Assembly: GCA_016205145.1 (NCBI GenBank) | Contig: JACQJH010000001.1 | Span: 451,501-515,500, forward strand | Direction: 5' to 3' | Source of the DNA: Candidatus Iainarchaeum sp. | GTDB lineage: Archaea > Iainarchaeota > Iainarchaeia > Iainarchaeales > JACQJH01 | DNA length: 64,000 nt | Part shown: positions 532 to 60,302 of the stretch, one piece after another | Layout of the letters: every line of letters starts with the position of its first letter | Position numbering within the stretch: position 1 is the stretch's first letter | The notes under the pieces: model-generated | What the model saw: only the letters and a program-made list of their open reading frames with translations | Database searches by the model: none | What the model was told of the DNA's origin: nothing | Position numbers and translations under genes: made by a program

Positions 532-589
532 GTTTCTGCAAAAATATCTGTTAAAAACTTTAAAATAATTTTTGGAAAGGGGGAGTTTG

Positions 590-1420
590 ATGACAAAACT
601 TGGGGAAATGGACGCAAAATCTTCTGCGCAGATTCCAAACAGCTTGGTTCTCGCGGCAAGCATATTTATTTCGGCGCTGATTTTATCGGCATCTGTCCTG
701 ATGGTGGGCAATTCCATTACAACTGAAATTTCAAAGCTTTCAGGCCTGGCGCTTGCGCCGGCAAATGCAGGCGGAACAGGAACCCAAGAGCAAAACGTTC
801 CTTCGCCCGCGCAGGCTGCGCCTTCTCCTGAGCCGGCGGCGCCCGAAATTTCGCTGAAAACGGTTTCAGGCAATGCAGCCGGAGTCATGGGCGAGGACAA
901 TGCGCCGGTTACAATCGTGGAATATTCCGATTTCCAGTGCCCGTTCTGCAGGCGCCATTACACTGAAACGCACCAGCAGCTGATAGACAATTACGTGAAG
1001 ACCGGCAAGGCAAAGCTTGTTTTCAAGGATCTGCCTTTGGACTTCCATCCTTCGGCTTCAATGGCCGCGAACGCGGCAAGGTGCGGCGCGGAGCAGGGAA
1101 AGTTCTGGGAAGCGCATGACGCAATCTTTGACATGCAGCAGGCAAAGGATCCCAGCGGGGGAACCGTGCAGTTTTCTGCGCAGGACGTCAAGGATGCCGT
1201 CGCGAAGATTTCCGGAATCGACGCAACAAAGTTCAATTCGTGCGTTGACAGCAGCAAGTATGCAAGCGATGTGAAGGCAAGCTACACCGAAGGCTTTTCC
1301 ATCGGCATAAACGGCACGCCGAGCTTTGTCATCGGACCGACGGACGGCAAGGGCCAGATTGTCGTTGGGGCGCAGCCTTTCGCGACATTCAAGGCGGTCG
1401 TAGACGGGTATTTGGGCTGA
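590..1420 (+). CDS. DsbA-like thiol:disulfide oxidoreductase. It has an N-terminal TM anchor and a Pro/Ala-rich linker.
   Basis: The motif FQCPFCRRHY is a CxxC in DsbA/thioredoxin-fold context. A GGGGG RBS precedes the ATG at 590. The ORF-track start at 572 is an alternative. Confidence 0.75.
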   Translation: MTKLGEMDAKSSAQIPNSLVLAASIFISALILSASVLMVGNSITTEISKLSGLALAPANAGGTGTQEQNVPSPAQAAPSPEPAAPEISLKTVSGNAAGVMGEDNAPVTIVEYSDFQCPFCRRHYTETHQQLIDNYVKTGKAKLVFKDLPLDFHPSASMAANAARCGAEQGKFWEAHDAIFDMQQAKDPSGGTVQFSAQDVKDAVAKISGIDATKFNSCVDSSKYASDVKASYTEGFSIGINGTPSFVIGPTDGKGQIVVGAQPFATFKAVVDGYLG

Positions 1421-2801: not shown

Positions 2802-2864
2802 CTGGCCGCACTTTTGATTGTTTGGCTTTTTTTTGGCGCTCAGGGGCTGTTCCGCTTTTTCCAC

Positions 2865-2911
2865 ATGGTTTCAACAACGGTTATCTATGGTTTCAGCCGC
2901 ATTGTTTGCAT
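2865..2911 (+). promoter_or_regulatory. Conserved 47-nt promoter/operator motif, copy 1: GGTTTCA-n12-TATGGTTTCAGC-n7-TTTGCAT.
   Basis: It is nearly identical to 9181-9227. It contains a TATA-like TAT.TATGG and lies 42 nt upstream of the GGAGG-preceded ATG at 2953. Confidence 0.5.
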
Positions 2912-2952
2912 CAGAGCCTGATTCAGGCAATGTTTTTGCGGAGGAGACGGAA

Positions 2953-3630
2953 ATGCAGGGTTGTTGCGGGGAAGGGCACAAGTCCGGTTCCCATAAGTCT
3001 GGTTCGGCTGGCCAGCAAGCGGAATTCAAAACCAGTGCCGGCGGCAAAAAGCTGGGTTTTGGAAAAACCGCATTGACTGTGGTTTTGGCCTTGGCTGTTG
3101 TAGCAGGACTGCTGTTTTTCCTTCGCCCCGGCTCGACTGGACAGGTGTCCGCAACCGCGACGGGCAATACTGTCGGTGCTGTGGCGCCGGGTTTTGAGTT
3201 GAAGGACATTGCCGGAAACAGCGTGAAGCTGAGCGATTTCAAGGGCAGGGCTGTCATACTTTTTTTCAACGAGGGCGGAATGTGCTATCCTTCGTGCTGG
3301 AACCAGATAAAGGCTCTGGCAACGGATGAAAGGCTTAACAACGAAAACGTGGCGTCTTTCTCCGTGGTGGTTGACAACACTTCGGACTGGGAGAAAATCA
3401 CGGCTCACGTGCCCGGCTTTTCGCAGTCGGGCCTGCTCTTCGACACTTCAAAGGTTGTTTCGTCAAGTTACGGGGCGCTGAACATGCCGTCTTCGATGCA
3501 TGGCGGCATGATGCCGGGGCACACATATTATATCATCGGAAAGGACGGCAAAATAAAGTTCATTTTCGACGACCCGCAGATGGGCGTGAGGAACGACCTG
3601 CTTGCCGCTGAAATAGCAAAGCTGGTTTGA
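2953..3630 (+). CDS. Membrane-anchored thioredoxin-like (TlpA/redoxin family) protein with an N-terminal Cys/His-rich tail (MQGCCGEGHKSGSHKSGS).
   Basis: The active-site-like motif is GGMCYPSCW. There is a TM segment TALTVVLALAVVAGLLFF and a strong GGAGGAG RBS. The in-frame ATG at 2887 lies inside the conserved motif, so it was rejected as a start. Confidence 0.65.
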   Translation: MQGCCGEGHKSGSHKSGSAGQQAEFKTSAGGKKLGFGKTALTVVLALAVVAGLLFFLRPGSTGQVSATATGNTVGAVAPGFELKDIAGNSVKLSDFKGRAVILFFNEGGMCYPSCWNQIKALATDERLNNENVASFSVVVDNTSDWEKITAHVPGFSQSGLLFDTSKVVSSSYGALNMPSSMHGGMMPGHTYYIIGKDGKIKFIFDDPQMGVRNDLLAAEIAKLV

Positions 3631-3655: not shown

Positions 3656-4534
3656 GTGGGCGAACTGCTTTTAGGCGCGTCAATAATAACCGCTTTTGTG
3701 GCGGGAGTCGCGGCATTGTTCGCGCCGTGCTGCATTACCGTGCTCTTGCCCGCCTACCTCGGCTCGGTTTTCAGGCAGATGCGCACGGTTTTCCTCATGA
3801 CTTTCGTTTTCTTCCTGGGCCTGCTCGCGGTTTTCCTGCCGCTCGGCCTCGGCTTCGCGGCGCTCGGCGAAGCGTTCAGGCAGTTTCACGACGTCATTTT
3901 CGTCGGCGGAAGCGTTTTCCTCATAGTGCTTGGCGCCTCGATGCTTTTGGGAAAGCACTTTTCAATGCCATTTGCACCGCGCCCGTCTCCAAAAGTTACT
4001 GGTGCGGTTTCGGTTTTCGCGCTCGGCGTGTTCTCCGGCATAGCGACGCTTTGCTGTGCGCCCGTGCTTGCCGGAGTGCTGGCGCTTTCGATAATGCCGG
4101 GTTCGGTTTTCTGGGGCGGAGTCTACTCGCTGGCTTACGTGCTTGGCATGACGATTCCGTTGTTCGTAATTGCCTTCGCGCTTGACAAGTCGGATGCCCT
4201 TGAAAAAATCCGGCTGCTCAACAGGACCGTCGAATACGGCTTCGGCGGAGAAAAAATCAGCCTGCTTGCATCCGAAATGGTTGCAGCGTTGATGTTCATC
4301 GGAATGGGCTTGCTGACGATTTACTTTTTCATGACCGGGCAGCTTGCACAAAATTCCGGCTTCCAGGTTTCCACGAACGTGATGCTTGCAGGAGTGGCGG
4401 ATTTTGCCTCGAAGTATTTTTCGTGGGCACCGCCGGTTGCATTGGCGGGCGCGGTTGCGCTGATTTTGGCCGGCCTGGCGTTCATTGCCTTCAAAGAGAA
4501 GCATGGCCGGGGAAACGAAAAAAGGGAATCCTGA
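3656..4534 (+). CDS. ccdA: CcdA/DsbD-family transmembrane thiol-disulfide electron transporter.
   Basis: It has PCC and LCCAP motifs in TM helices (FAPCCITVLLPAYLG; IATLCCAPVLAG) and is polytopic. It has a GTG start. Confidence 0.8.
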   Translation: MGELLLGASIITAFVAGVAALFAPCCITVLLPAYLGSVFRQMRTVFLMTFVFFLGLLAVFLPLGLGFAALGEAFRQFHDVIFVGGSVFLIVLGASMLLGKHFSMPFAPRPSPKVTGAVSVFALGVFSGIATLCCAPVLAGVLALSIMPGSVFWGGVYSLAYVLGMTIPLFVIAFALDKSDALEKIRLLNRTVEYGFGGEKISLLASEMVAALMFIGMGLLTIYFFMTGQLAQNSGFQVSTNVMLAGVADFASKYFSWAPPVALAGAVALILAGLAFIAFKEKHGRGNEKRES

Positions 4535-4964: not shown

Positions 4965-6689
4965 ATGGCGGGATTTGATGGCAGGACTGTCATTGGCTTG
5001 GCTTTGGTGGCCGTAATCGTGTTTGGGGCGGCGTTTTACATTGGCACATCCGGAAATTCCGGAATGCGTTCAGAGACGCGGCCGGCCGGAAGCGCGGCCG
5101 GGCAAACGGGCGCGGCATTCCCTTCCGGTGAATTGTCCGCCGGCGACAGGGCCATGATGGAGCACTGCAAGTCCATGCCGCAAATGCCGGGGTGCGAAAA
5201 ATTCGCCGGTCAGGAAGCCGCCGCAAATGGCGGTGCGGGTGCAAACGCCGGTTACTCTGATTCAGTTGCCGGGCTTTCCGCGGCAGGCGGAACCGCGGTT
5301 TATGATGCGAAAGACGGCGGAAAAATAACCCTGTCAGCGTCGGCCGTCAAAAAAACCGTTGCCGGCACGGAAGTCAGGATGCTTGCATACAACGGCCAGA
5401 TTCCGGGACCCACGATAAGAGTGAAACAGGGAAGCTCTCTGGAAGTGGAATTCATAAACGGCCTTGACTCCGAAACGACTGTGCACTGGCACGGCGTGAG
5501 AGTAAAAAACGATTTTGACGGCGTTCCGGGCGTGACGCAAAAGCCGGTCAAGCCCGGGGAAAAGTTTGTCTACCCGCTGGAGTTTCCGGACGAGGGCATA
5601 TACTGGTATCATCCGCACATGAGAGAGGACTACCAGCAGGAGCTCGGGCTTTACGGCAACATCATCGTCGAGCCGTCCGATGAAGGCTCTTACAACAAGG
5701 TCAACCGCGAAATGACGCTTGCGCTTGACGACATTCTGATGGAAGGCAATGGCATTGCCGCGTTCTCCGCCGATTTTGCGACGCATTCCCTGATGGGAAG
5801 GTTCGGGAACGTGATGCTGGTCAACGGCAGTGACAAATTTGAAATGGCCGCGCTGAAAGGCGAAACTGTGAGGTTTTTCGTCACGAATGCCGCGAACGCA
5901 AGGACATTCAACTTGGTTTTCGGGGGATTGAAGTTGAAGGTTGTCGGCGCGGACAGCGGAAAGTATGAAAAAGAATTTTTCGCGGACTCGGTTGTGGTGG
6001 CGCCGTCGGAAAGGTACGTTGTGGAAGTGCTGTTTGACGGGGAGGGAACATACAACATCCTCAATTCGACGCCTGAAGGAAAAACGGTTCTCGGCAAAAT
6101 AGCCGTGTCGGGCCGGCAGGCGGAAGAGGATTATTCCAAGGAGTTTTTTGAAACAATGGAAAATTCCCGGGTTGCTGACAGCATTTCCGGCATGAGGCGG
6201 TATTTTGACAAGCCCGCGGACCATGAAATAAGAATCGGCGTGGACCTGATGGGCATGAGTCATGGCAGCATGGCGATGGCTCAGGGAACCGGCGGCATCG
6301 AGTGGGAGGACGAAATGCCGCAAATGAACCTGGCCATGAACAGCAGGATAATGGAATGGCAGTTCATTGACGTGAAAACCGGGAAAAAGAACGAGGGCAT
6401 AAGCTATGAGTGGAAAAAAGGCGACAAAATCAAGTTGAGGATTTTCAACGACCCGGATTCCGCGCACCCCATGCAGCACCCGATCCATTTGCACGGCCAA
6501 AGGTTCCTGGCCATAAGCAGTGACGGGGTGGAAAGCGAAAACCTGGCGTGGAAGGACACGGTTCTGGTCCCGTCGGGTTCCACGGCGGACATTCTTGTGG
6601 ATGTCTCGAATCCCGGAAAATGGATGCTGCACTGCCATGTCCCGGAACACATGGAAAGCGGAATGCACACGACGGTAAACGTAATATGA
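4965..6689 (+). CDS. Multicopper oxidase (laccase/CueO-like), membrane-anchored or secreted.
   Basis: The copper-ligand motifs HWHG, HPIHLHG and HCHVPEHMESGMH are present. It has an N-terminal TM/signal and a GGAGGG RBS. Confidence 0.9.
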   Translation: MAGFDGRTVIGLALVAVIVFGAAFYIGTSGNSGMRSETRPAGSAAGQTGAAFPSGELSAGDRAMMEHCKSMPQMPGCEKFAGQEAAANGGAGANAGYSDSVAGLSAAGGTAVYDAKDGGKITLSASAVKKTVAGTEVRMLAYNGQIPGPTIRVKQGSSLEVEFINGLDSETTVHWHGVRVKNDFDGVPGVTQKPVKPGEKFVYPLEFPDEGIYWYHPHMREDYQQELGLYGNIIVEPSDEGSYNKVNREMTLALDDILMEGNGIAAFSADFATHSLMGRFGNVMLVNGSDKFEMAALKGETVRFFVTNAANARTFNLVFGGLKLKVVGADSGKYEKEFFADSVVVAPSERYVVEVLFDGEGTYNILNSTPEGKTVLGKIAVSGRQAEEDYSKEFFETMENSRVADSISGMRRYFDKPADHEIRIGVDLMGMSHGSMAMAQGTGGIEWEDEMPQMNLAMNSRIMEWQFIDVKTGKKNEGISYEWKKGDKIKLRIFNDPDSAHPMQHPIHLHGQRFLAISSDGVESENLAWKDTVLVPSGSTADILVDVSNPGKWMLHCHVPEHMESGMHTTVNVI

Positions 6690-6746: not shown

Positions 6747-7217
6747 ATGCGAAAATGGTGGCAAGTGGACAAAAAAATAAAATTCCTGTTGGTTGGGGCG
6801 GGGCTTTCAATTCTGCTTTTCATAATCATGGGAACGCCCACGGCCCTCGTGCCCAACCCATTCATTCACTACAAGAGGATGGTTGCCGCGGCATGGTTGG
6901 ACTATTTTTTTCTCGCCTCAACCTCGATAATGCTTGCGGCATTGATTTCGCTGAAACTGTATTTCAGGTCGGGGCGCGGCCTCGGCGCAAAAGAAATCGG
7001 CGGGGGCGCGCTGGGCTTTCTTGCGTTCAGCTGCCCGATTTGCAATGCTCTTCTCGTGGCTTTGCTCGGCGGCGCGACGATAATGGCGTTCGTGGAGCCG
7101 TTGAGGCCGCTGTTTGGAGTCGTGTCGATTGCGATTTTGGGTTGGCTTATTTATGGCGCGCTGAAATGCGGGGGATGCAATGGCGCCGCAGGCCGGCACG
7201 GCATGAAAATTAATTAA
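6747..7217 (+). CDS. CxxC membrane protein, paralog 2 (FSCPICNALLVALLGG; C-terminal CGGCNG).
   Basis: Same architecture as 1466-2017. Confidence 0.45.
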   Translation: MRKWWQVDKKIKFLLVGAGLSILLFIIMGTPTALVPNPFIHYKRMVAAAWLDYFFLASTSIMLAALISLKLYFRSGRGLGAKEIGGGALGFLAFSCPICNALLVALLGGATIMAFVEPLRPLFGVVSIAILGWLIYGALKCGGCNGAAGRHGMKIN

Positions 7218-7247: not shown

Positions 7248-7955
7248 GTGCTTGGAATGGCGTTTCCTTTGAACCCCTGGCTTTTCGGCTCGGCCGCCCT
7301 GCTGTTGTTGTGGCTGGCCATATGGCTTTTCAGGCCCGCTTTGCGCAGGGAAATGCTTTTGGTCAGCCTTTTCACCGCGCCTTTGGGTCTGACGGAACCG
7401 CTTTTTGTGCCCGAATACTGGACTCCGCCTTCGCTGTTCAACCTTGCCGCCACAACGGGCTTTGACATTGAAAGCATAGTCTTCTGCTTTGCCGCCGGGG
7501 GAATAGCGGCGGTCATCTACGAAATCCTGGTGAAATCGAGGCACAGTGAAATGTCCATGAATGAAATGCGTTCTAAACGGCACAGGTTCCACAAAATCGC
7601 GCTCGCCTCTCCCGCAATCGTTTTCGTGCCCCTGTACCTTTTTTCCGGCCTGAACCCGATATATGTTTCAATAATTGCGCTGTTTGCCGGCGCAATGGCG
7701 ACTGTCGTGTGCAGGCCGGATTTGAAGAAACCGGTCTTAACCGGAGGAACAGTATTTTTGCTCATCTATTTCTTTTTCTTCCTGTTTTTGAGCGTGGCAT
7801 TCCCGGATTTTGTGCCGAACGCGTGGAATTTTTCGGCCATCAGCGGCATTCTTGTTTTCGGCGTCCCTTTTGAGGAGCTGCTGTTCGCGCTTTCCTTTGG
7901 AATGGCGTGGGCGGGCCTTTACGAGCATTTTTTCTGGAAAAAACTGGTTCGTTAG
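7248..7955 (+). CDS. Polytopic membrane protein. It may be lycopene-cyclase-domain-like, based on PxEE-type motifs (GVPFEELLF).
   Basis: Seven or more hydrophobic helices and a PFEELLF motif. The family assignment is tentative. Confidence 0.35.
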   Translation: MLGMAFPLNPWLFGSAALLLLWLAIWLFRPALRREMLLVSLFTAPLGLTEPLFVPEYWTPPSLFNLAATTGFDIESIVFCFAAGGIAAVIYEILVKSRHSEMSMNEMRSKRHRFHKIALASPAIVFVPLYLFSGLNPIYVSIIALFAGAMATVVCRPDLKKPVLTGGTVFLLIYFFFFLFLSVAFPDFVPNAWNFSAISGILVFGVPFEELLFALSFGMAWAGLYEHFFWKKLVR

Positions 7956-7985: not shown

Positions 7986-8411
7986 TCAGTGCGCGCCGCC
8001 GCCCTTGAAAGTCCGCGCGCAGTGCCTGCAGCAGAATTTCAGGGTTTTTCCGTTTATTTTTTCCGTGTGGCCGCCTTCATAGACCATGCAGGCGCAGTGC
8101 GCGCACTGCGAAAGCTTCGGTTCCACGGCAAGGTCTATGAGGCCGCCGAACCTGTGCAGCATCGACTTGCAGAACGCCTTGCCTTCCGGCGTCAGAGCGT
8201 AAACCTTTTTTTCCCTCGCGCCCTCTGATTTGACCCGGATGTATTTTGCCTTTTCAAGTTTTGCGAGGAAAGGGTAGATCTGGCCGGGTGAAACCCTGCT
8301 TTCGAGCCTTTCGCTTATCTCCTTTATGAGCTCGTAGCCGTGCCTGGGGCCGTCGCACAGAAGAAGCATGCAATAGAATTTGGCCATGTTTGTGATCCTG
8401 ATTTCTTTCAT
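7986..8411 (-). CDS. PadR-family winged-helix regulator fused to a C-terminal TRASH metal-sensing domain. It is a candidate copper-responsive regulator.
   Basis: The N-terminus LCDGPRHGYELIKEI...GQIYPFLAKLE is a PadR signature. The C-terminus CAHC-x20-CCRHC fits the TRASH pattern C-x2-C-x19-22-C-x3-C. Confidence 0.7.
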   Translation of the reverse strand: MKEIRITNMAKFYCMLLLCDGPRHGYELIKEISERLESRVSPGQIYPFLAKLEKAKYIRVKSEGAREKKVYALTPEGKAFCKSMLHRFGGLIDLAVEPKLSQCAHCACMVYEGGHTEKINGKTLKFCCRHCARTFKGGGAH

Positions 8412-8453: not shown

Positions 8454-8474
8454 TATATCTAAATTTGATATATC
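8454..8474. promoter_or_regulatory. Divergent promoter region with ATATATC-n7-GATATAT(C). It holds two copies of the self-complementary GATATATC-like element, between the PadR-TRASH gene and the Met-rich protein gene.
   Basis: Sequence TTATATATCTAAATTTGATATATC. These are TATA-like boxes for divergent transcription and/or an operator. Confidence 0.35.
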
Positions 8475-8542
8475 TGTTTTCTGGGCATCATTTTTCTGAG
8501 CGTCATTTGGGCTGGCAACAATTTTTTTTGGGGTGGTTTGCA

Positions 8543-9130
8543 ATGGTGGAAAAATCGGGTTTGCTGGCATTGGTTGTATTGGCGGGTTTAATCGCGTTGC
8601 CTGTTGCAATGGCGCAGGGTTCGGATGATTTTGCGCAGGCGAAGGCGCTGATCGACAGGAATGCGTCCTGCGGCAGCCTGAGCAGCGAACAGCTTGAACT
8701 GATCGGCGATTATGTGATGGAGCAGATCCATCCCGGCGAAGCCCACGAATATGTGGAATCGATGATGGGCGGCGAGGGCTCGGATAGCCTGAAACGGGCG
8801 CACATTGCCATGGCTTACAGGTTCTACTGTGCAGGCTTAGGTTCTGGGTTGAACGCAAACAGCCCGTATTATGGCGTAATGGGCGGCTATGGGATGATGG
8901 GTGGCATGATGTACGGCAACTATGGCGGGATGATGGGTTCTGGCAATGCCTATTCCACTTATGGGCTTATGGGATACGGCGGCGGAACCGCAAATTATCC
9001 TGGAATGATGGGCTATAATGCGTCAACCGGCGGCCTTGGCCTGCTTACGCAGGTCTTGTTTGTGGTGGCGCTTGGTCTCGCAGTTCTGTTCCTTGGCATT
9101 AAAGTCTTCGGGCAATTTCAAAAGCGGTGA
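8543..9130 (+). CDS. Secreted Met/Gly/Tyr-rich protein with a signal peptide and a C-terminal TM anchor. It is a putative periplasmic copper-binding protein.
   Basis: Signal peptide LLALVVLAGLIALPVAMAQG. The central region is MGGYGMMGGMMYGNYGGMMGSGNAYSTYGLMGYGG. The C-terminal TM is LFVVALGLAVLFLGI. Confidence 0.55.
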   Translation: MVEKSGLLALVVLAGLIALPVAMAQGSDDFAQAKALIDRNASCGSLSSEQLELIGDYVMEQIHPGEAHEYVESMMGGEGSDSLKRAHIAMAYRFYCAGLGSGLNANSPYYGVMGGYGMMGGMMYGNYGGMMGSGNAYSTYGLMGYGGGTANYPGMMGYNASTGGLGLLTQVLFVVALGLAVLFLGIKVFGQFQKR

Positions 9131-9296: not shown

Positions 9297-9728
9297 ATGA
9301 ATGAGGTTAAAGTCCAGCGTGTTTTCCTGTTGCTTGTGTTAGGCGCCCTGGTCGTGTTCGGCGGAATGGTTCTGTTTTGGTTTGGCGCTAATGCAGCGCC
9401 CGCCAGATCGGCATCGGTAAATAATCAGGGTATTGTTGCCGGAGGGAACGGCCAGGCACAGGACATTTACATCAGGGCGCTTTCAAGCGGAACCTATGAC
9501 AAAAGCGAGGTCACGGTAAAGAAAGGCGTGCCGGTCAGACTGCATTTTTCCGCTGACCCTGGCGCGGGCTGCGGAAGGTATCTGGTGCTATACGGCCTGA
9601 ACGTCAATGCGCTTTCCAAGAACGGCGAAGAAGCGGTTGTCGACTTCACGCCGCAACAGGAAGGCAGCTTTGAATACAATTGCGGTATGAGAATGTTCAA
9701 ACCCGGAACATTGAAGGTTTTGGCATGA
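9297..9728 (+). CDS. Cupredoxin-like copper-binding domain protein with an N-terminal TM anchor.
   Basis: The beta-rich domain has Cu-ligand-like residues HFSADPGAGCGRY...YNCGMRMFKPG in a Cys...Cys-x-Met arrangement. Confidence 0.55.
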   Translation: MNEVKVQRVFLLLVLGALVVFGGMVLFWFGANAAPARSASVNNQGIVAGGNGQAQDIYIRALSSGTYDKSEVTVKKGVPVRLHFSADPGAGCGRYLVLYGLNVNALSKNGEEAVVDFTPQQEGSFEYNCGMRMFKPGTLKVLA

Positions 9729-10201
9729 GCAGGCTTGAAGCTTTGGCCTTGGTGTTGTCGGAGCGCAGTCAGCTCGCAATATTTCTTGCGGCGTTTGCCG
9801 TGCTTTTGCCTTTGCTGGCAGTCAGCTCGGCAATAATTTCGCCGGTGGGTTTTGCGTTCAATCCTTTGGCTGAACCGCTTGGAATCGCTTTGACAATCGT
9901 CATTGCAATCCTGATGGGCCTGAACCTGACGGTCCTGTTGCATGCCCACGCACGCAATGCAAATGCAAAAAAGGGGACTGTCCTGTTCGGCGGCCTGGCG
10001 GCAACGTTTGCCACTGCCTGCCCTGTTTGCCCGCCGACATGGATTGTCCTGCTCGGCTTCGGCTCGGCCGCGGGCTTTCTTTCTGGAACCGGGATTTTCA
10101 TTGCAATTGGCAGCATAGTCTTGCTTTCATTGGCTCTTTACAATTCTTTGGGTTGCGCAGACGGAAACTGCGGGGTGGACAAGAATGGAAAAAATGATTA
10201 A
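9725..10201 (+). CDS. CxxC membrane protein, paralog 3 (ATACPVCPPTW; C-terminal CADGNCG).
   Basis: Its ATG overlaps the upstream stop (ATGA). Same architecture as 1466 and 6747. Confidence 0.45.
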   Translation: MSRLEALALVLSERSQLAIFLAAFAVLLPLLAVSSAIISPVGFAFNPLAEPLGIALTIVIAILMGLNLTVLLHAHARNANAKKGTVLFGGLAATFATACPVCPPTWIVLLGFGSAAGFLSGTGIFIAIGSIVLLSLALYNSLGCADGNCGVDKNGKND

Positions 10202-10388
10202 AGTGAAAGGCATGCATTGTAAGTCATGCGAAATCCTTGTCGCGGACTCCGTGTCTGAAATCAGCGGCGTGGAAAGCGTCAAGGCGGACAGCAGGAAGGG
10301 AACTGTTGTGGTGAATGTCCGGGATGCCGGGATTCTCGGCAGGGTGAAAGCCGCGATTGAAAAGGAAGGCTACAAGGTGGAAAACTGA
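10185..10388 (+). CDS. copZ: Copper chaperone CopZ (single HMA domain).
   Basis: The GMHCKSCE motif is the MxCxxC of an HMA domain. The protein is 67 aa. Confidence 0.8.
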   Translation: MEKMIKVKGMHCKSCEILVADSVSEISGVESVKADSRKGTVVVNVRDAGILGRVKAAIEKEGYKVEN

Positions 10389-11308
10389 TGGAATTCGAAC
10401 TTGAACTTGGCGGAATGTCCTGCGGCTCATGCGAGCGCATAATCGAAAAGGTTGCCGAGAAAGCCGGCGCGGAAGTCAAGGAAATCGACTCGCGCAAAGG
10501 CAGGGTCACAATCGTTTCCGAGGAATCCAAAATAGCCGGAATAAGGGAAGAGCTTGCCAAGCGCGGCTTTGCCGAAAAGGGCAGCAGGGAAGACGTGGGC
10601 AGGGGCGACCTGAAAAACGTTGTTGGCTACATTTTGGCAGTGCTGTCAATCCAGCCGCACGTCGAAGAGGAAGCCAGGCTCGTCAACCACGCCATTGCGT
10701 CCGCGATTATTTTGGCTGGGCTGAACATTCTGGCTTACCTGTTTTTTGTGCAGGGCCTGGAGAACGGCGAAAAGTACCTTCCATTCCTTGCATTGGCGAT
10801 TGTTGCGTCAATAACATCCGTTTTCGCGTACCTTCACGCCAAATGCTACCGTAAAATCATGTCCTGCCAGAACGGCATGATGGTCGGAATGACCATGGGC
10901 ATGGTTCCGGGCTTCATGGTCGGCGCAATCATTGCCGCGACAAACGGAATGTTTCTTGGCAGCGTGGCCGGAATTCTGACCGGCGCATGGCTTGGCCTGA
11001 AGAGCGGAAAATGCTGCGGCGTAATGGGCGCAATGGAAGGAGTCATGGCCGGCCTGATGTCCGGTTTGATGGGGCCGATGACAGTGATCATGACCCTCAA
11101 CGACAACATGCTCGTTCTGCTTTACCTGATTTTCGGAATCTCTGTTTTTTTGCTCGGCGGCCTGAGCTACATGCTGTACCGCGAGGAAGGCGAAACCCCG
11201 GTTGCGAACACAAAGCTGCCGGAATTCATTGTTCTCGGCATTGCGTTCAATCTTGTGCTGCTGGCGATAATGCTTTTTGCGGTTAAGGGGCCATTGAGGT
11301 TCGTGTGA
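10388..11308 (+). CDS. Fusion of an N-terminal HMA domain to a polytopic Met-rich membrane domain. It is a candidate Cu(I) channel or permease.
   Basis: The N-terminus carries GMSCGSCE. The membrane part is [19 protein letters not shown]...[24 protein letters not shown]. Confidence 0.55.
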
Positions 11309-11318
11309 GGGCGATGGC

Positions 11319-13775
11319 ATGAAAAAAATCACAGTCGGCATTAAAGGCATGCATTGCGCTTCCTGCGCCACGATAATCGAGCGTCGCCTCAAAAAAGTTG
11401 AAGGCGTGAAGGATGTCTCTGTCAGCGTCGCGGCAAACAGGGCGGCGATCGAATTTGATGAGGGCATTGCGGGCATTGAACAGTTTGGAAAGGCAGTGGA
11501 AAGTGCAGGGTACGAACTCGTCCAGCCGCAGGGGCAGGATTCCGGCGATGCGAAGATAACAATGCATGTAAAGGGCATGGATTCGCCGCATTGTGCGGGC
11601 ATTGTCGGGAATGCGCTCAAGGGAACCGCTGGAGTGAAAAAATTCGACCTCAGCTTCCAGAATGCCTCGGCAATGGTTGAATTCGATGCCTCCATCACCG
11701 GCTTTGATAAAATAAAGGCTTCGATTGCAAGGGCAGGCTATGATGCGGAACTGCTTGTCGGGGAGGAAACAGTGGACCAGGAGAAGGCCGCACGCGATAA
11801 AGAAATCGCGGAATTGAAGCGCAGGCTCGTTTTTTCGGCATTGCTGACCGTGCCGGTTGTCCTGCTTGCATTGCCGGAAATGCTGAAAACTGTTATGGCA
11901 TTCGAGTACCCGCAGTTCATAATGCAGAACATGGCTGCATTGCAATTGCTGTTTTCAACGCCGGTGATGTACCTTAACAGGGACATGTTTGTGAGGGGCT
12001 TCAGGGGGCTGTTGAATAACATGCCGGGCATGGACAGCCTTGTCGCTTTGGGCGTCGGGACAACCTATGCTTACAGCGCAATCGTGGCCCTGCGCATCAT
12101 TGGCGGAGTCATGTATTTTGAAACCGCTGCTTTGCTTCTCACGTTCATATTGCTTGGCAGGTACCTTGAGGCGATTGCCAAAGGAAAGACTTCCGAGGCA
12201 ATCAAGCGCCTTGTAGGGCTTGCGCCGAAAACCGCAATCGTGGTCAGGGCAGGAAAAGAGGTTGAAATTCCGATCAAGGAAGTTGTTGTCGGGGACATTG
12301 TCATTGTGAAGCCGGGCAGCAAGATTCCGGTTGACGGCGTCATAGTCGAAGGCGAAAGCAGCATTGACGAGAGCATGATTACAGGGGAGAGCATGCCCGT
12401 GCACAAGCGAAAAAATGACATTGTGATCGGCGGGACAATCAACGGCAATGGCTCTTTCAGGTTCAGGGCGACAAAAATCGGCAAGGACACAATGCTTGCG
12501 CAGATAATCCGTTTGGTGGAGGACGCGCAGGCAAGCAAGGCGCCGATCCAGAAGCTTGCAGACACTGTCGCAGGCTATTTTGTGCACGCAGTAATAGTGC
12601 TTGCATTGCTTGCCTTCGCTTACTGGTATTTCGTGGCAGGCCAGCCGTTTCTTTTCGCGCTCACAATCCTTGTTTCAACGCTTGTGATTTCCTGTCCTTG
12701 CGCAATGGGCCTTGCAACCCCGACAGCGGTCATGATTGGAACCGGCAAGGGCGCCGAGAACGGCGTGCTCATAAAAAACGCGGAGAGCCTTGAAATCCTG
12801 CATCAGGCCAAAACCTTTGTGTTCGACAAGACCGGCACAATCACCATGGGAAAGGCGTCGGTAACGGAAATCGTTCCGGTCGGAATCAAGGCAGCCGACC
12901 TTCTTTGCCTTGCGGCTTCCGCGGAAAAGAATTCCGAGCATCATTTAGCGCAGGCAATCGTGAAAAAGGCGAAGGAATCGAGGCTGAAAATTGCAGAACC
13001 GAAATCTTTCAAGGCGATTCCGGGGCATGGCGTCGAGGCAAAAGTCGGGGCGAAGAATGTTCTCATCGGAACTGTTGTCCTGATGAAAAAAAGCGGGGTC
13101 CGGATCGGAAACGATTTGGTTGGCAGGATGCAGTCGCTTGAAGAGCAGGGAAAAAGCGTTGTCCTTGTTTCGTCGGACGGAAAGCTTGTGGGAATGGTTG
13201 CGATTGCCGACACCATAAAAGAGCATGCTGCCGAGGCTGTAAGGCAATTGCAGGCAATGGGTTATGAAACCGTCATGATAACCGGCGACAATTCCCGCAC
13301 TGCAAACGCGATTGCAAAGCAGGCAGGCATTTCAAGGGTGCTGGCGCAGGTGCTTCCGTCGGACAAGGCCGCGGAAGTCAAGAAATTGCAGTTGAACGGA
13401 AGAAAGGTTGCCTTTGTCGGCGACGGCATAAACGATGCCCCGGCCTTGGCGCAGGCCGACATTGGAATCGCGATTGGCAGCGGCACCGACGTTGCGATTG
13501 AAAGCGGCGGAATAGTTTTGGTGAAAAGCGATTTGCGCGACATTGTGACGGCGGTAAAGCTTAGCAAATACACTCTCGGCAAAATAAAGCAGAATCTGTT
13601 CTGGGCTTTCGGCTACAATGCGGTCGGCATTCCGCTCGCGGCAGGCGCATTCTATCCTTTCACCGGCTGGCTTTTGTCGCCGGTCATAGCCGGAGCGGCA
13701 ATGGCTTTCAGCTCGGTAAGCGTTGTTTCGAACAGCCTGCTCATGCGCGGATGGAAACCGGATAAAAAGGTTTGA
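11319..13775 (+). CDS. copA: Copper-translocating P1B-type ATPase CopA with two N-terminal HMA domains.
   Basis: It has GMHCASCA and GMDSPHCA motifs, an [14 protein letters not shown] motif, DKTGTIT, and GDGINDAP. Confidence 0.92.
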
Positions 13776-47039: not shown

Positions 47040-48335
47040 ATGGCCGAACCTGTCGATATGAACCATGCGTTTTCAAAGGCGCTTGAACTGATGGAAGGGA
47101 CGCGCAAAAACGTTTTCATTACGGGAAGGGCGGGCACGGGCAAATCGACCCTGCTGGGCCATTTCAAAAGCGTTTCAAAAAAACGGCTTGCTGTAATCGC
47201 CCCGACCGGTGTTGCGGCTGTCAACGTCGGCGGCCAGACAATCCACTCGTTTTTCGGCTTCAAGCCGAACATCACGGTCGGCAAGGTGAAGGTTTCAAAA
47301 AAGCGCAGGATATTCGAGGCCCTAGACGCAATCATCATCGACGAAATTTCGATGGTGCGTGCCGACATCCTGGACTGCATCGACCGTTTCCTGAGAGTCA
47401 ACCGCGGCAATCTTGGCGAGCCGTTCGGCGGCGTGCAGATGATTTTGTTCGGCGACCTCTATCAGCTTCCGCCGATTGTGTCTGGTGCTGAGCGCGCGCA
47501 CTTTTCGACTTTTTACCGAAGCCCATACTTTTTCGACTCGGATGCCTTTGAAGGCCTCGGGCTTGAAATAATCGAGCTTGACGAGGTTTACAGGCAGAAG
47601 GACAGGGAATTCGTAAGCTTGCTTGACGGGGTAAGGCATAACAGGATTTCCGACGAGCACCTGAAGCGCCTGAATGCACGGGTCATGCCGTCCTTTGAGC
47701 CGAAAGAAAACGAATTTTACGTGCGCCTGTGCACGCTGAACAGCATGGCGGATGAAATCAACGCGGCGGAACTCGAAAAAATCAAAGCCTATGAATACCG
47801 CTTCCGCGCGGCATCGGAAGGCGATTTCGGAAACGAGTACATGCCATGCGAACAGGAACTCAAACTCAAACTGGGCGCGCAGGTGATGTTTTTGAACAAC
47901 GATTCGGAAAAGCGCTGGGTGAACGGCTCGATGGGAAAAGTCATAGGCTTCCGCAGGGAAAATGAAAACTATGCAATCCAGGTCGAACTGCCCACAAAGG
48001 AAAAGGTTGCCGTAAACCCGCACACCTGGGAACTGTTCAGGCCGAAACTCGACCCGCTCCGGAACGCGCTCGCATATGAAACGATCGGCTCTTTCACGCA
48101 GTATCCTTTGCGCCTGGCCTGGGCCATCACAATCCACAAAAGCCAGGGAAAAACGTTCGAAAAGGCGATAATCGATTTCGGCCATGGAACATTTGCGCCG
48201 GGACAGGCTTACGTCGCCTTGAGCCGGTGCACGACGCTTGAAGGCATGGTCCTCAAAAGGCCGCTTGAAAAAAGGCACGTGATGGTCGACAAAAAAATCG
48301 CGGACTTCATGGAAAAAGCGAAAAAGCCGGGATGA
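47040..48335 (+). CDS. Pif1/RecD-family 5'-3' DNA helicase.
   Basis: Walker A GRAGTGKST and DEISMV. The C-terminus AITIHKSQGKTF...AYVALSRC is the Pif1/UvrD_C_2 signature. Confidence 0.8.
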   Translation: MAEPVDMNHAFSKALELMEGTRKNVFITGRAGTGKSTLLGHFKSVSKKRLAVIAPTGVAAVNVGGQTIHSFFGFKPNITVGKVKVSKKRRIFEALDAIIIDEISMVRADILDCIDRFLRVNRGNLGEPFGGVQMILFGDLYQLPPIVSGAERAHFSTFYRSPYFFDSDAFEGLGLEIIELDEVYRQKDREFVSLLDGVRHNRISDEHLKRLNARVMPSFEPKENEFYVRLCTLNSMADEINAAELEKIKAYEYRFRAASEGDFGNEYMPCEQELKLKLGAQVMFLNNDSEKRWVNGSMGKVIGFRRENENYAIQVELPTKEKVAVNPHTWELFRPKLDPLRNALAYETIGSFTQYPLRLAWAITIHKSQGKTFEKAIIDFGHGTFAPGQAYVALSRCTTLEGMVLKRPLEKRHVMVDKKIADFMEKAKKPG

Positions 48336-48439
48336 TGGCTAGAACCTAGGGCGCCCAAAGAAATGACTGGTCAAGTGGATAATTGTATGGGTAGATAATT
48401 AATAACATTCATTCAATAAATTAAATTATTTTTTGAAGT

Positions 48440-49150
48440 TTGCGTGTCTGGGTGATTAATATAGGAAACCCAATAAATTTTGTCAAAACAAGTTTTAACA
48501 AAATAATAATCAGCACAAAAATTCAAAAAATCAATTATGTGCAACGAATTCTCCTGCTCGTAGTGTCTTGGACGCTTATTGGCTCGATTATAGGAATAAA
48601 TCTAGTAAAATTTAATCTCATTGAAGTTTCAAATTCGTCAATTATTGGTTTGTGTATTTTTAATTGTAATAATATTCAAAATGTCCAAGACAACAAAATA
48701 ACCGAAGAACAAAGGCAAATTGAATATAATAAACATCTGAGGCTTGTGGATTCAACTATTGCAGAGCTAAAAAACAATAGGGGTATTGCTAATCAGTATT
48801 TTGATGATAACAAATCGTATCTAGTTTATCACTACCTATTTTCAAAACGATTTAAAACGACCCAGCTTGAAACGCTAATAAACTCTTCAGATTTTAGAAA
48901 CAATAGCATTATGGGACTTCTAGGTATAGTTGAAACAAACACCAAAAGTGCAAATAAATATCTTGACAATTTAGAACAAATGTTAAAACAAATTGAAACT
49001 GAAGGGCAGTATGATCAATATGGTAAATATGAAGAAACATTTCAAAATATTTTTGAAAAAATTATTAAACCGCTGAACCAAGCGCAAGAAACATTAATTC
49101 AGTTATTAACAAAATACAAGGTTTCTGTGGGCATTAATTCTTTTCCGTGA
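48440..49150 (+). CDS. Orphan ORF within an approximately 0.85 kb AT-rich islet. It is a membrane-anchored, Asn/Ile/Lys-rich protein, and its start is uncertain.
   Basis: The island has strikingly low GC relative to its flanks. There is one TM segment and no recognised motif. Confidence 0.3.
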   Translation: MRVWVINIGNPINFVKTSFNKIIISTKIQKINYVQRILLLVVSWTLIGSIIGINLVKFNLIEVSNSSIIGLCIFNCNNIQNVQDNKITEEQRQIEYNKHLRLVDSTIAELKNNRGIANQYFDDNKSYLVYHYLFSKRFKTTQLETLINSSDFRNNSIMGLLGIVETNTKSANKYLDNLEQMLKQIETEGQYDQYGKYEETFQNIFEKIIKPLNQAQETLIQLLTKYKVSVGINSFP

Positions 49151-49198
49151 GCAAATAAAATTTTGTGTGGCGGTTATTGAATCTTGGTCCTTTTGTTA

Positions 49199-51031
49199 TT
49201 ATTCCCACTCGATCGTCGCGGGCGGCTTGTGCGTTATGTCGACGTACACTCCGCTGATCTTTGTCTTCGGCACTTTTTCCAAAAGCTTTTTCACGAACTT
49301 TTCGGGCAGGGGGAAAAATTTTGCGGTCATTGCCTCGCGGCTCTGCACCGGCCTCAAGACAATCGATTCGCGGCGCCTGCAGTCCGTTCCAACTGGAATC
49401 AAAACTGTCGGGAACTGCCATATTTCATTCATCAGGCCCTGCTTTTCGACCAGCTTCATCACAATCTCATCCATTTCCTGCAGCAATTCAATCCTTTTAG
49501 CGTTCAAATCCTTTGCGAACAGGTTGATGCTTTCCGCCTTTTCCCGGTTAACGCAATAGACAACCCTGTTGACTTCCGGCACTTCGTTTGTGATGCGCGT
49601 TGAAACGAATTCAAGGGCCTTCCAGCCGCTTTTGCCGAACAATGCCATGACATGCTTGTACGAGCGCGAATCGCCCTGGACGCCGACGCTTTTCAATGGC
49701 AAAACCTTTGGCCGCAAACCGGATTCGGCGCAGATTCCGGAAGCCTTTTTTTCGATTGCGGCAATCTCCTTTGCGCTGGAATCACTTTTGCCATTTGAGC
49801 ACAATGCCCTGATTGCAAGTCCCGGCCCGGGAAACGGGTGCCTCAAAACCATTTCATTGGGCAAACCGATGCTTTCGCCCAGCGCCCTGACTTCATCCTT
49901 GTACAACTGCTTCAACGGCTCTATGACAATGCCTTTCGCAATCATTTCCTCTATGACCGGAACGCGGTTGTGGTGCGTCTTGATTTTAGAGGCAAACTTT
50001 GTTCCGGCAGTCTCAATCGTGTCAGGATAAATAGTTCCCTGGCACAAAACCCACTGCTCATGGTTCAATCCGAGCTTTTCAATTTCCGCCTGCATTATTT
50101 CAACAAACAGGTTGCCTATGATTTTTCGCTTTTCCTCCGGGTCGAAAACGCCCTTAAGCGCCGCGAAAAACCTTTTCGACGCGTCAACGGTTGTAACATC
50201 GCACAATCCGAGCTTTTTGAACGCCTTTTTCACGCTTTTCGATTCATTCCTGCGCATGAAGCCCGTGTCAACGTGCAAGGCAAAAACCCTGTCACGCGGC
50301 AGGGCCTTACTCACCAAAGCCAATGCAACAGTGCTGTCGACTCCGCCGGAAACAAGGCTGAAAACCTTCCTGTCGCCGACAGCCCTGACAATCTCGATTA
50401 TCTCCCTTGAAAGATAATTTTCCATTGTCCAGTTTGCATCGCAGCCGCACACGTCAAAAACAAAATTCTTGAGAATCTGCATGCCGTTCTCAGTATGCGT
50501 GACTTCAGGATGAAACTGCAAACCGAAAAATTTCCTGCCTGCATCAGCAACCGCCGCGGCTTCACAGTCGTCGGTGCTGCCAATCACTTCAAACCCTTCC
50601 GGCAGTTTCTCGACAGTGTCGCCGTGCGACATCCACACCTTTTCATTGCCCTGCAACAAGTGGAACAGCCCTTCGGATTTTTTGACGTGCAGGAAAGCCG
50701 AGCCGTACTCCTTTGTCTTTCCGGCAGAAACCGTTCCGCCAAGCGCCTGTGCCATTAATTGGTGGCCATAACAAATGCCCAGCACCGGCTTGCCCAGTCC
50801 GAGAATCTTCCTGTTGAACGGCGGAGCATTCCTGTCGTAAACCGAGTTCGGCCCGCCGGACAAAATTATCCCGCAGCAGTTTTCAAGCTCTTTTTCGGAA
50901 ACAGTCGGCTCCTTTATCTCCGAAAAAACGTTCATTTCGCGGACGCGCCTTGCAATCAGATGCGCGTACTGCGCGCCGAAGTCGATTACAACTATGCCCT
51001 TCTGTTCCTGCATAAACTCAGATAACATCAA
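49199..51031 (-). CDS. guaA: GMP synthase (glutamine-hydrolysing).
   Basis: GATase GICYGHQ, PP-loop SGGVDSTV, and C-terminal IEWE. Confidence 0.92.
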   Translation of the reverse strand: MMLSEFMQEQKGIVVIDFGAQYAHLIARRVREMNVFSEIKEPTVSEKELENCCGIILSGGPNSVYDRNAPPFNRKILGLGKPVLGICYGHQLMAQALGGTVSAGKTKEYGSAFLHVKKSEGLFHLLQGNEKVWMSHGDTVEKLPEGFEVIGSTDDCEAAAVADAGRKFFGLQFHPEVTHTENGMQILKNFVFDVCGCDANWTMENYLSREIIEIVRAVGDRKVFSLVSGGVDSTVALALVSKALPRDRVFALHVDTGFMRRNESKSVKKAFKKLGLCDVTTVDASKRFFAALKGVFDPEEKRKIIGNLFVEIMQAEIEKLGLNHEQWVLCQGTIYPDTIETAGTKFASKIKTHHNRVPVIEEMIAKGIVIEPLKQLYKDEVRALGESIGLPNEMVLRHPFPGPGLAIRALCSNGKSDSSAKEIAAIEKKASGICAESGLRPKVLPLKSVGVQGDSRSYKHVMALFGKSGWKALEFVSTRITNEVPEVNRVVYCVNREKAESINLFAKDLNAKRIELLQEMDEIVMKLVEKQGLMNEIWQFPTVLIPVGTDCRRRESIVLRPVQSREAMTAKFFPLPEKFVKKLLEKVPKTKISGVYVDITHKPPATIEWE

Positions 51032-51189
51032 AAACCTTTAAACACGAACACAACACCAAAAACCGCACGAACGCCTTGAATGCAAAAGAGAAAAAGAGTG
51101 TTTCCCGAAACCGCGGAAATTATGTCCAATCCCAAAACATATTTAAAAAGTTGCAGGCAAAAACCTTGAAAGTGTTGGGAGTTGAAGGG

Positions 51190-51365
51190 GCGAGTCATAC
51201 CGCTTGCGGTTCCCTGGCTTGCCCTCTCATTTTTATCCTGAGCCGCTTTCGTCCGGCTCGCCGTCTCGTCCGGCGGGTACGTTTTGTGGTGTTCGCGCCG
51301 TTGCGGAACACCACGCATGCTTTGCGGGGTTTGCAAGGGGTGCAACCCCTGCGTTTTATCCGGCT
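51190..51365 (+). ncRNA. Candidate structured ncRNA of unknown identity, made of multiple GC-rich hairpins. The strand is uncertain.
   Basis: Nested inverted repeats (GAGCCG..CGGCTC, GTGGTGTTC..GAACACCAC, GGGG-TGCAA-CCCC). No ORF. It is directly followed by a copy of the tRNA-trailer module. Confidence 0.2.
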
Positions 51366-51411
51366 GGTTCGAAACCAAGGCGGCCTGCTGTTGCAAGCCG
51401 CCGAGTGAGTC
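51366..51411 (+). repeat. tRNA-trailer-like module copy B (GGTTCGAAACCAAGGCG + hairpin + CGCCGAGTGAGT), not preceded by a recognisable tRNA.
   Basis: Core GAAACCAAGGCG and CGCCGAGT, with a distinct stem sequence. Confidence 0.4.
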
Positions 51412-51531
51412 AGTACTCCTGACCCTCCCCCGAAATTCCTGATTTTTTCCCACAAAAACCATTAAAAAACTCCCTGACCAAGAATAGTTCAAGGCACCGG
51501 AATCAAAGTGCCAAAAAGCCACCATCAAATT

Positions 51532-51735
51532 GCGGGGGTGGCGGAGCGGTCTAACGCGCCAGCCTTGAGAAACCTTTTTCTTTCTTGAGAAGAAAGAAAA
51601 AGCTTCAATGCAAAATCAAAGATTTTGCATGCATCAAAAATTTGATTTTTGATGTACCAAAAAGAAAGAACCGTTCTTTGTTTCAGGCAAGCTGGTATCC
51701 GAAAGGATGCGCGAGTTCGAATCTCGTCCCCCGCG
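51532..51735 (+). tRNA. tRNA-Ser (anticodon UGA), class II, with an approximately 120-nt intron in the anticodon loop.
   Basis: Exons give a GCGGGGG/CCCCCGC acceptor, a 3-bp D-stem with an 11-nt loop, anticodon stem CCAGC/GCTGG, loop CUUGAG|A, a long variable arm, TTCGAAT, and G73. The intron is 51570-51689. Confidence 0.75.
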
Positions 51736-51736
51736 A

Positions 51737-51800
51737 GCACGCAGTTTCGGCTGCGTGGAGCGAAACTAAGGCGGTTCACACTGTGAACCGCCGAGTAAGC
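51737..51800 (+). repeat. tRNA-trailer module copy C.
   Basis: Hairpin CACGCAG-TTTCGG-CTGCGTG, then GAGCGAAACTAAGGCG, a hairpin, and CGCCGAGTAAGC. Confidence 0.5.
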
Positions 51801-51887
51801 AAAAAAATCACATCGCGTTTTTCGCCTTGCAAAACCGGTTTCGTTTTTAAACATTTTCCACCCAATCTTGGACAAGGTGAGTTGTGG

Positions 51888-60284: not shown

Positions 60285-60302
60285 GAATTTCTTATTTGCA
60301 CC

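Follow-up and report, generated by a model that had tools for sequence, protein, structure and literature searches.

The copper-related gene cluster at the start of a 64,000-nucleotide stretch of Candidatus Iainarchaeum sp. DNA (hereafter the window; GenBank assembly GCA_016205145.1, contig JACQJH010000001.1, positions 451,501 to 515,500) raises the question which function is performed by a membrane protein encoded between genes for a copper chaperone (copZ) and a Cu(I)-transporting ATPase (copA). A preliminary description of the gene concerned (10388..11308, hereafter X) proposed that its product combined an N-terminal HMA domain with a methionine-rich polytopic membrane domain and was a candidate Cu(I) permease. 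Copper movement across the prokaryotic cytoplasmic membrane by systems other than P1B-type ATPases is poorly understood, with CcoA and the debated CopD and YcnJ as the main candidates (PMC7558416). The analyses reported below indicated that X is very probably a Cu(I)-binding membrane component of a copper module. That it acts as a trans-membrane Cu(I) relay between the HMA/CopZ pool and an outside cupredoxin, leaning outward, was judged to fall just short of an even chance. Somewhat more tentatively, X might be the founder of a family of non-ATPase, seven-helix Cu(I) conduits with a 'Met ladder', completing a chaperone-membrane-chaperone wire.

The N-terminus of X contains the sequence GMSCGSC at residues 9-15 (G9-M-S-C12-G-S-C15), and the corresponding GMxCxxC loop is kept in homologues that bear an HMA domain. 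Against the Pfam HMA model (PF00403), X alone scored 19 bits, relative to a gathering cut-off of 24.8 bits, while a Pfam scan of 41 family members yielded an HMA match in 29. A profile of the 41 members matched the N-terminal domain of CopA (1p6t, E 2.5e-8) as well as many CopZ, Atx1, and MerP structures, and all HMA matches of this profile among PDB sequences ran via residues 1-69. An AlphaFold2 (AF2) model of X computed from the family alignment was confident as a monomer, with a mean predicted local distance difference test (pLDDT) score of 93.9 and a predicted template modelling (pTM) score of 0.89. In this model, residues 2-58 adopted the beta-alpha-beta-beta-alpha fold of HMA domains (DSSP strands at 2-7, 29-34, and 39-43; helices at 13-25 and 46-58). 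The HMA structures 3dxs and 2kyz matched the X N-terminus with a Foldseek probability of 1.0 and target template modelling scores of 0.70-0.79.

In the AF2 model, a short amphipathic helix (residues 75-86) is located between the HMA domain and a membrane domain with seven long helices (residues 90-119, 127-152, 160-186, 188-210, 212-235, 241-267, and 277-297), here numbered as transmembrane helices (TM) 1 to 7. In the 81-residue core formed by TM3, TM4, and TM5 (residues 160-240), Met and Gly account for 14 and 17 positions, or 17 and 21% of the composition. At a background of 2.5% Met, the probability of finding at least 14 Met residues in such a segment is 1.4e-8. X further contains six MxxxM and fifteen GxxxG motifs, and Gly occupies each fourth residue from 163 to 211. 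Both parts of the originally proposed architecture, the HMA domain and the Met-rich polytopic domain, were thereby confirmed.

Conservation was assessed in an alignment of 205 sequences, using X numbering. Within the core, Met was present in at least 97% of the sequences at positions 164, 165, 168, 172, 213, 220, 224, 228, 231, and 235. Seventeen Gly positions were at least 91% conserved. Polar or thiol-containing core residues were also retained, namely C160 (87%; His in 6%), N186 (96%), E217 (93%; substituted by Q in 4% and by H in 2%), and D239 (86%; E in another 10%). Elsewhere, E95, E266, and H150 showed 95, 88, and 79% conservation, respectively. The family core motif reads C-x-x-G-M-M-x-G-M-T-x-G-M ... 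A-T-N-G-M-F-x-G ... G-x-M-G-x-M-E-G-x-M-A-G-x-M-x-G-x-M-G-A-M-x-x-x-M-x-x-x-D, and X has all invariant or near-invariant family residues except at A183, P230, and V299 (mostly G, A, and P in the family). Since TM1, TM2, TM6, and TM7 were conserved poorly in comparison, TM3-5 were considered to be the functional core, and retention of these features across the 205 homologues argued against chance composition. A CC pair highlighted in the preliminary description was indeed present, at residues 209-210 in the TM4-5 loop, but because only 53% of the homologues carried it, it was not taken as a defining site. Helical-wheel arithmetic placed the six TM5 Met residues on a single 80-degree arc extending over 22 residues, or approximately 33 Å, which corresponds to the full bilayer, with the Gly residues of TM5 on the opposite face.

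The earlier statement that X is neither CopA nor CopZ agreed with direct tests. No E1-E2_ATPase or Hydrolase match characteristic of a P1B-type ATPase was found in X with Pfam or NCBIfam, and identification as a soluble CopZ/Atx1 protein failed on its length of 306 amino acids, its seven TM helices, and a score of 18.9 bits with the NCBIfam CopZ model (cut-off 91 bits). HMA was the only Pfam family matched by X at E <= 1, and NCBIfam returned weak HMA-type matches only. Across the 41 family members, the commonest non-HMA Pfam match was Gly-zipper_YMGG (11 members, best E 0.01), followed by weak matches to unrelated families in one to three members each, all of which were judged compositional. 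CopD/PcoD, MerT/MerF/MerC, CTR (SLC31), and other metal permeases were absent from the 25 most frequent Pfam families listed for these members, and no MerT-type homology of X was detected with Pfam or NCBIfam. Among the approximately 200 homologues listed, Pfam annotation consisted of PF00403 or was absent; a profile search with the membrane domain only, intended to identify a distant Pfam-annotated relative, returned just more HMA-annotated or unannotated members.

Comparison with solved structures gave a similar picture. Over residues 90-306, the family profile produced only marginal, compositional matches to PDB sequences (best E 0.004), with no stretch significant alone. A Foldseek search of the AF2 model against 350,000 PDB chains yielded no meaningful fold match for the membrane domain: the top match was a bestrophin (E 0.1, template modelling score 0.17, root-mean-square deviation 23.6 Å), and the bestrophin, major facilitator superfamily (MFS), and G-protein-coupled receptor matches were dismissed as noise (E >= 0.1, template modelling scores <= 0.23, root-mean-square deviations 13-25 Å). 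An internal duplication of TM3-4 as TM5-6 was rejected at an hhalign probability of 2.5%. A relationship of the membrane domain to a known transporter family for substrates other than metals, which would have refuted the preliminary proposal, was sought in Pfam, NCBIfam, PDB sequences, and PDB folds, and not found. The literature searched contained neither a description of the X family nor one of an accessory copper membrane protein of archaea. By sequence criteria the membrane family is new and, judging from the AF2 model, its fold is possibly new as well.

A phmmer scan over 1.84 billion cluster representatives (50% identity) identified 180 proteins with E <= 1e-10 to X, and nearly all of the best 150 spanned the membrane domain. 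A pattern scan with one genome per species supplied further candidate stretches; the first 600 of them were checked, and at least 273 proved to contain X relatives, so that at least 273 species genomes encode the family. The best 80 loci derived mostly from DPANN archaea (Micrarchaeota and relatives, Woese-, Nano-, Pace-, and Aenigmatarchaeota, and Iainarchaeum), and further included metagenome-assembled genomes (MAGs) of Methanosarcinales, Methanoregula, one Thaumarchaeota-labelled MAG, and two Patescibacteria. Another bacterial relative was found on contig L085. These 80 loci also include one (L067) from the complete genome, not labelled as a MAG, of the cultured Methanosphaerula subterraneus strain EG. 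A tblastn search of PLSDB plasmids yielded no match. Existing annotations of homologues read 'HMA domain-containing', 'copper chaperone CopZ', 'cation transporter', 'cation transport ATPase', or hypothetical, and a dedicated family model would correct these HMA-derived or hypothetical assignments.

Domain architecture varied around the conserved core. Of the 205 members, 120 were extended N-terminally by 55 or more amino acids with a CxxC (HMA), and 71 consisted of a bare membrane domain without HMA. In three members (P0153, P0166, and P0190), a Cupredoxin_1 domain was fused to the C-terminus of the X-type domain, and in P0190 a Pro/Thr-rich linker and a SurA_N domain lay between the two. A single sequence of 499 amino acids (P0152) joined the HMA domain and TM1-5 to a HisKA_3/HATPase_c histidine kinase, an arrangement which suggests that the Met-ladder domain may be able to act as a metal-sensing input. 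In a divergent subfamily (P0184, P0187, P0199, P0208, and P0215; 330-360 amino acids, without HMA), His takes the place of E217. Its members also have Cys-rich N- and C-terminal extensions, share an invariant WCCG, and carry a CGAMM tail at the C-terminus.

In the window, the genes for a cupredoxin, a CPxC membrane protein, CopZ, X, and CopA follow each other in this order and are packed in an operon-like manner. The copZ stop codon overlaps the X start codon as TGATG, the cupredoxin stop codon overlaps the start of the CPxC gene as ATGA, and 10 nucleotides separate the end of X from the start of copA, so that the reported position of X between copZ and copA was corroborated. The copA product possesses the E1-E2 ATPase and HAD domains with DKTGT that are missing from X, and its translated sequence contains CPC (in TM6), YN, and MxxSS motifs. 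These motifs, together with two HMA domains, indicate a Cu(I)/Ag(I) pump in the established P1B-1 classification.

Synteny was analyzed by translating all open reading frames (ORFs) of 81 non-redundant loci, which span DPANN archaea, methanogens, Patescibacteria, and one Thaumarchaeota-labelled MAG, and searching them with the window proteins. Of the 81 loci, 75 encoded a cupredoxin no farther than 3 kb from X, and in 55 the distance was at most 300 bp. The cupredoxin gene is located upstream of X where the gene order is of the Micrarchaeota type, whereas in Woese/Nanoarchaeota, methanogens, and Patescibacteria it is located downstream. copZ adjoined X in 61 loci; copA was located within 3 kb in 74 and adjoined X in 36. 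In one locus (L003), the genes for cupredoxin, CPxC protein, CopZ, and X were grouped without an adjoining copA, which was first encountered at a distance of approximately 8 kb. Based on both fusions and adjacency, the cupredoxin was identified as the tightest partner of X. The preliminary description had correctly named copZ and copA as neighbours but missed this most consistent partner, which is encoded two genes upstream.

Other genes were linked to X less regularly. A CPxC protein of the type encoded in the window next to copZ recurred in 14 of the 81 loci, at most 1.5 kb from X and between cupredoxin and copZ. Homologues of the PadR-TRASH regulator of the window occurred within 4.5 kb in 8 loci and DsbA-like genes in 14, and no general linkage to X was observed for the CcdA/TlpA-like genes. 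A multicopper oxidase was present in just 2 loci, for which reason service of the oxidase upstream in the window was rejected as a general role of X. On the bacterial contig L085, the order was CsoR, CopA, and an X-SurA_N-cupredoxin fusion; this order and the presence of PadR-TRASH in the window suggest a copper-excess regulon around X. Taken together, synteny in approximately 90% of the 81 loci from two domains of life, the fusions, and the ten near-invariant Met residues supported the proposed link to copper as a candidate function.

The cupredoxin of the window was homologous to the Cu(I) chaperone CupA of Streptococcus pneumoniae, with E 9e-10 for 2mry/4f2e, and with E 7e-7 also to 4f2f, the cupredoxin domain of CopA from this species. 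Its first Cys and its C-G-M-x-M sequence align with the CupA ligands, which form the Cys...CxMxM Cu(I) site described for that protein (PMC5552934; PMC7558416). All 82 cupredoxins from the loci possessed an N-terminal TM anchor, and nearly all contained the exact CxMxM, with a few reading CxMHM. Lys plus Arg (K+R) residues averaged 1.99 before and 0.84 after the anchor, and S/T/P/G/N/Q-rich linkers followed it. From this charge bias and linker pattern, an N-in/C-out orientation of the cupredoxins was deduced. For X, summed per-loop means of K+R in the 205 sequences were 6.98 for loops predicted inside and 1.79 for those outside. In combination with the seven spans, this distribution placed the HMA domain in the cytoplasm and the C-terminus, to which the fused cupredoxins and SurA_N attach, outside. 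X is therefore predicted to expose its HMA domain inside the cell and to meet its cupredoxin partner outside, and the thiol-reducing CcdA and TlpA-like proteins encoded in the window would be compatible with Cys ligands on a protein outside the cell.

The resemblance to CupA thus extends to the N-terminal TM anchor and the Cys...CxMxM ligands. However, pneumococcal CupA acts at the cytoplasmic side (PMC7558416), where it feeds the cupredoxin-type metal-binding domain of CopA, whereas the window cupredoxin is predicted outside. The S. pneumoniae system further differs from the window, where CopA has HMA domains and CopZ is encoded as a protein of its own. CupA was described in a 2020 review as restricted to a few streptococci (PMC7558416).

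On the basis of these data, a relay through X can be formulated. Cu(I) bound to cytoplasmic CopZ would be passed to the CxxC of the fused HMA domain and from there to a thiolate/imidazole site (C160, H150, and often C209/C210) located where TM2/3 and TM4/5 end on the cytoplasmic side. It would then step by thioether ligand exchange along TM3 (M164/165/168/172) and TM5 (M213/220/224/228/231/235), with the glycine zipper keeping the Met-ladder helices closely packed. At the outer face, a site consisting of N186, D239, and M188/M235, with N/H240 nearby, would release Cu(I) to the membrane-anchored CupA-like cupredoxin, to be bound there by the Cys2Met2 ligands. Net outward flux would constitute a detoxification route parallel or accessory to CopA, or an overflow to an outside sink. 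E217, in the inner leaflet, may provide proton coupling; alternatively, X could be an equilibrative conduit whose direction is set by chaperone occupancy. The outward lean was adopted because X is co-transcribed with copA under regulators of the copper-excess type (PadR-TRASH here, CsoR in the bacterial relative). From architecture, conservation, synteny, fusions, and predicted topology, we infer that the membrane domain binds Cu(I), that the ion is translocated, and in which direction, and the label 'permease' is to be read in the same sense.

Several observations weigh against such an outward relay, which was read from sequence, synteny, fusions, and a structural model. The geometry of the Met path derives from helical-wheel arithmetic, and the Met residues could instead face lipid or an oligomer interface. 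X contains no recognisable energy-coupling module, and replacement of E217 by Q in 4% of the members weakens an obligatory role in proton antiport. The 53% occurrence of the CC pair and the 71 members that are missing the HMA domain imply that neither element is essential for core function. In addition, a second exporter next to CopA seems redundant, and the nearest logical analogues, MerP/MerT/NmerA and CopC/CopD, are thought to act inward. The evidence on direction is divided: the links to copA and to the regulators argue for detoxification, while import would agree better with the missing energy module and with analogues that act inward.

Import through the same relay in reverse, from the cupredoxin to the cytoplasmic HMA/CopZ pool, was considered unlikely as an overall explanation, although its layout has clear precedents. 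It is like that of MerP/MerT/NmerA, in which a soft-metal binder outside and a membrane protein with Cys residues at the cytoplasmic face are combined with a cytoplasmic HMA domain, and it resembles transfer from CTR1 to Atox1. It also parallels CopC/CopD, which are likewise found fused and in copper-induced operons (PMC7558416). With no energy module in X, a passive Met conduit combined with an inside-negative potential and high-affinity cytoplasmic chaperones would favour influx, which could serve cuproprotein supply, sensing, or the funnelling of surface copper into the CopZ-CopA route. The multicopper oxidase of the window would need copper, but its scarcity across the loci and the predominance of DPANN, Patescibacteria, and methanogen hosts, for which we assume a low copper need, count against import. 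Co-transcription of X with copA near PadR-TRASH (or CsoR in L085) is likewise difficult to combine with import, since re-export by CopA to the same compartment would be futile.

A comparably low probability was assigned to a role without translocation, in which X would be a membrane metallochaperone or scaffold for CopA that concentrates CopZ/Cu(I) at the CopA entry and/or takes Cu(I) at the CopA exit for the cupredoxin. Its Met residues would then form binding sites where X contacts another protein or lipid, and such a scaffold would be comparable to the PacL-type partners of mycobacterial P-ATPases ('effluxosomes'). The proximity of copA in most loci fits this role, as does the existence of membrane-anchored chaperones that serve P1B pumps, such as CupA (PMC7558416), and of a periplasmic acceptor, CusF, which takes Cu(I) directly from CopA, as cited in PMC5552934. 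However, six near-invariant Met residues along the full span of TM5 and conserved polar residues at both faces exceed what docking would need, the cluster in L003 has no adjoining copA, and the closest linkage of X, fusions included, is with the cupredoxin rather than with CopA. Finally, it was considered quite improbable that X is a copper sensor or signal input, or has a role unrelated to Cu(I), for example with another thiophilic metal (Ag, Hg, Cd) or as a structural glycine-zipper membrane protein. The kinase fusion in P0152, MerT-like CPxC proteins nearby, and the Gly-zipper_YMGG matches in 11 of the 41 members could be read in this way. Against this, the kinase fusion is one sequence and X itself is without an output domain, the zipper matches are compositional, the ATPase encoded next to X bears the signature motifs for Cu(I)/Ag(I), and X is paired with a Cu(I) chaperone of the CupA type.

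Features of X and of the remainder of the cluster are compiled in Table 1.

Table 1. Location of gene X, its domains, and other genes of the copper cluster (window coordinates; aa, amino acids; nt, nucleotides).
Feature	Coordinates	Strand	Evidence and remarks
Gene X, HMA plus 7-TM Met-ladder protein	10388..11308	+	306 aa, ATG start; ORF list, 77 close homologues, AF2
X, N-terminal HMA domain, aa 1-66	10388..10585	+	Pfam HMA 19 bits, family profile, Foldseek; predicted cytoplasmic
X, CxxC (C12, C15), predicted Cu(I)-binding	nt 10421-10432	+	Within HMA domain
X, seven-helix membrane domain, aa 90-297	10655..11278	+	AF2/DSSP helices, hydropathy; predicted N-in/C-out
X, conserved core TM3-TM4-TM5, aa 160-240	10865..11107	+	Conservation in 205 sequences; Met ladder, Gly repeat
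copZ, 67-aa HMA chaperone	10185..10388	+	Pfam HMA 48 bits; NCBIfam CopZ model 46 bits, cut-off 91
copA, P1B-type Cu(I) ATPase, two N-terminal HMA domains	11319..13775	+	E1-E2_ATPase 2.9e-63; TIGR01511 3e-186
CupA-like membrane-anchored cupredoxin, Cys...CxMxM	9297..9728	+	Cupredoxin_1 1.6e-7; predicted extracytoplasmic
158-aa membrane protein, intramembrane CPVCPP, C-terminal CxxxxC	9725..10201	+	No Pfam or NCBIfam family hit
Met/Gly/Tyr-rich membrane-anchored protein	8465..9130	+	No Pfam match
PadR regulator with C-terminal TRASH domain	7986..8411	-	PadR 1.2e-16; TRASH_HVO_1752_C 7e-5, below 27-bit Pfam cut-off
235-aa membrane protein, Lycopene_cyc domain	7248..7955	+	2e-17
Second CPxC membrane protein	6747..7217	+	Distant paralogue of 9725..10201
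Membrane-anchored three-domain multicopper oxidase	4965..6689	+	In 2 of 81 loci
CcdA/DsbD_TM protein	3656..4534	+	
TlpA/AhpC-like redoxin	2818..3630	+	
DsbA-like thioredoxin	572..1420	+	

Its gene content marks approximately the first 14 kb of the window as an island devoted to copper and extracytoplasmic thiols. The PadR-TRASH protein, encoded divergently from the cop genes, is likely to be a copper-responsive regulator of the cluster. The two CPxC proteins share 24% identity (E 8e-6), and both combine an intramembrane CPxC with a pair of Cys residues in the C-terminal part; they are without a Pfam family, showed only a weak MerTP-like NCBIfam match (2e-3), and may be thiol-based metal carriers. 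The Met/Gly/Tyr-rich protein consists of an N-terminal signal/TM segment, a long low-complexity stretch (MMGGYGMMGGMMYGNYGGMMG...), and a C-terminal TM helix. Homologues of this protein, which may be an extracellular Cu(I) sponge, were found in 6 other cop loci. A close homologue (2e-82) of the Lycopene_cyc-domain protein is encoded directly upstream of X in one locus (L048). Farther along the window, Rfam identified a 184-nucleotide tRNA at 52641..52824 (+; 43 bits), for which ARAGORN made no call and whose length suggests an intron-containing archaeal tRNA. Conversely, a tRNA-Leu(gag) called by ARAGORN at 52944..53026 (+) was absent from the Rfam gathering scan. Over the last 16 kb of the window (48001..64000), the GC content falls from about 0.52-0.54 to 0.39-0.46, and this part could be a foreign or differently composed segment.

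The family provides a small (approximately 220 amino acids) candidate for copper passage with an unusually explicit predicted ion path of ten near-invariant Met residues. With partners on both membrane faces that are regarded as obligatory, chaperone-to-chaperone transfer across the bilayer is directly testable. Should the proposed relay through X be correct, X would represent a prokaryotic functional analogue of CTR1 that is widespread in DPANN archaea, methanogens, and Patescibacteria. The analysis also extends CupA-type cupredoxins to at least 75 archaeal and Patescibacterial (candidate phyla radiation, CPR) loci, with a different predicted compartment; if this prediction is true, CupA-like chaperones would be ancient and able to act outside the cell.

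Among known systems, CopC/CopD (PcoC/PcoD, and the YcnJ fusion in Bacillus subtilis) resemble the X system in combining an outside beta-barrel copper binder with a polytopic membrane protein in copper operons, occasionally as one polypeptide, and the role of both is debated (PMC7558416). Whereas PcoD is predicted to have eight TM helices (PMC7558416), X has seven with a Met ladder, a partner that is a CupA-type Cys2Met2 cupredoxin instead of CopC and, usually, a cytoplasmic HMA domain. MerP-MerT-NmerA share the logic of the X system, in which a binder of soft metals outside is followed by a small membrane protein, whose Cys pair lies at the cytoplasmic face, and by a cytoplasmic HMA domain. 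MerT has three TM helices and a CC pair in TM1. In X, the CC pair is located in the TM4-5 loop and is incompletely conserved, the Met-based path would suit Cu(I)/Ag(I), and the neighbouring ATPase is of the Cu(I) type. CTR1 (SLC31) likewise combines MxxxM in a TM helix with GxxxG packing and hands Cu(I) to a cytoplasmic HMA chaperone. CTR1 is a eukaryotic protein with three TM helices that forms a trimeric pore, whereas X is a prokaryotic seven-TM protein, modelled as a monomer, without a sequence or fold match to it. Stepwise movement of copper along intramembrane Met residues has been described for the methionine ladder of CusA and the MxxxM/HxxxM motifs of CcoA (PMC7558416; PMC4725013). These resistance-nodulation-division (RND) and MFS proteins have 12 TM helices and known proton coupling, in contrast to the unrelated seven-TM fold of X, which did not match them. 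By analogy, the logic of the X system therefore appears familiar: X would work like known chaperone-permease relays while belonging to none of their families.

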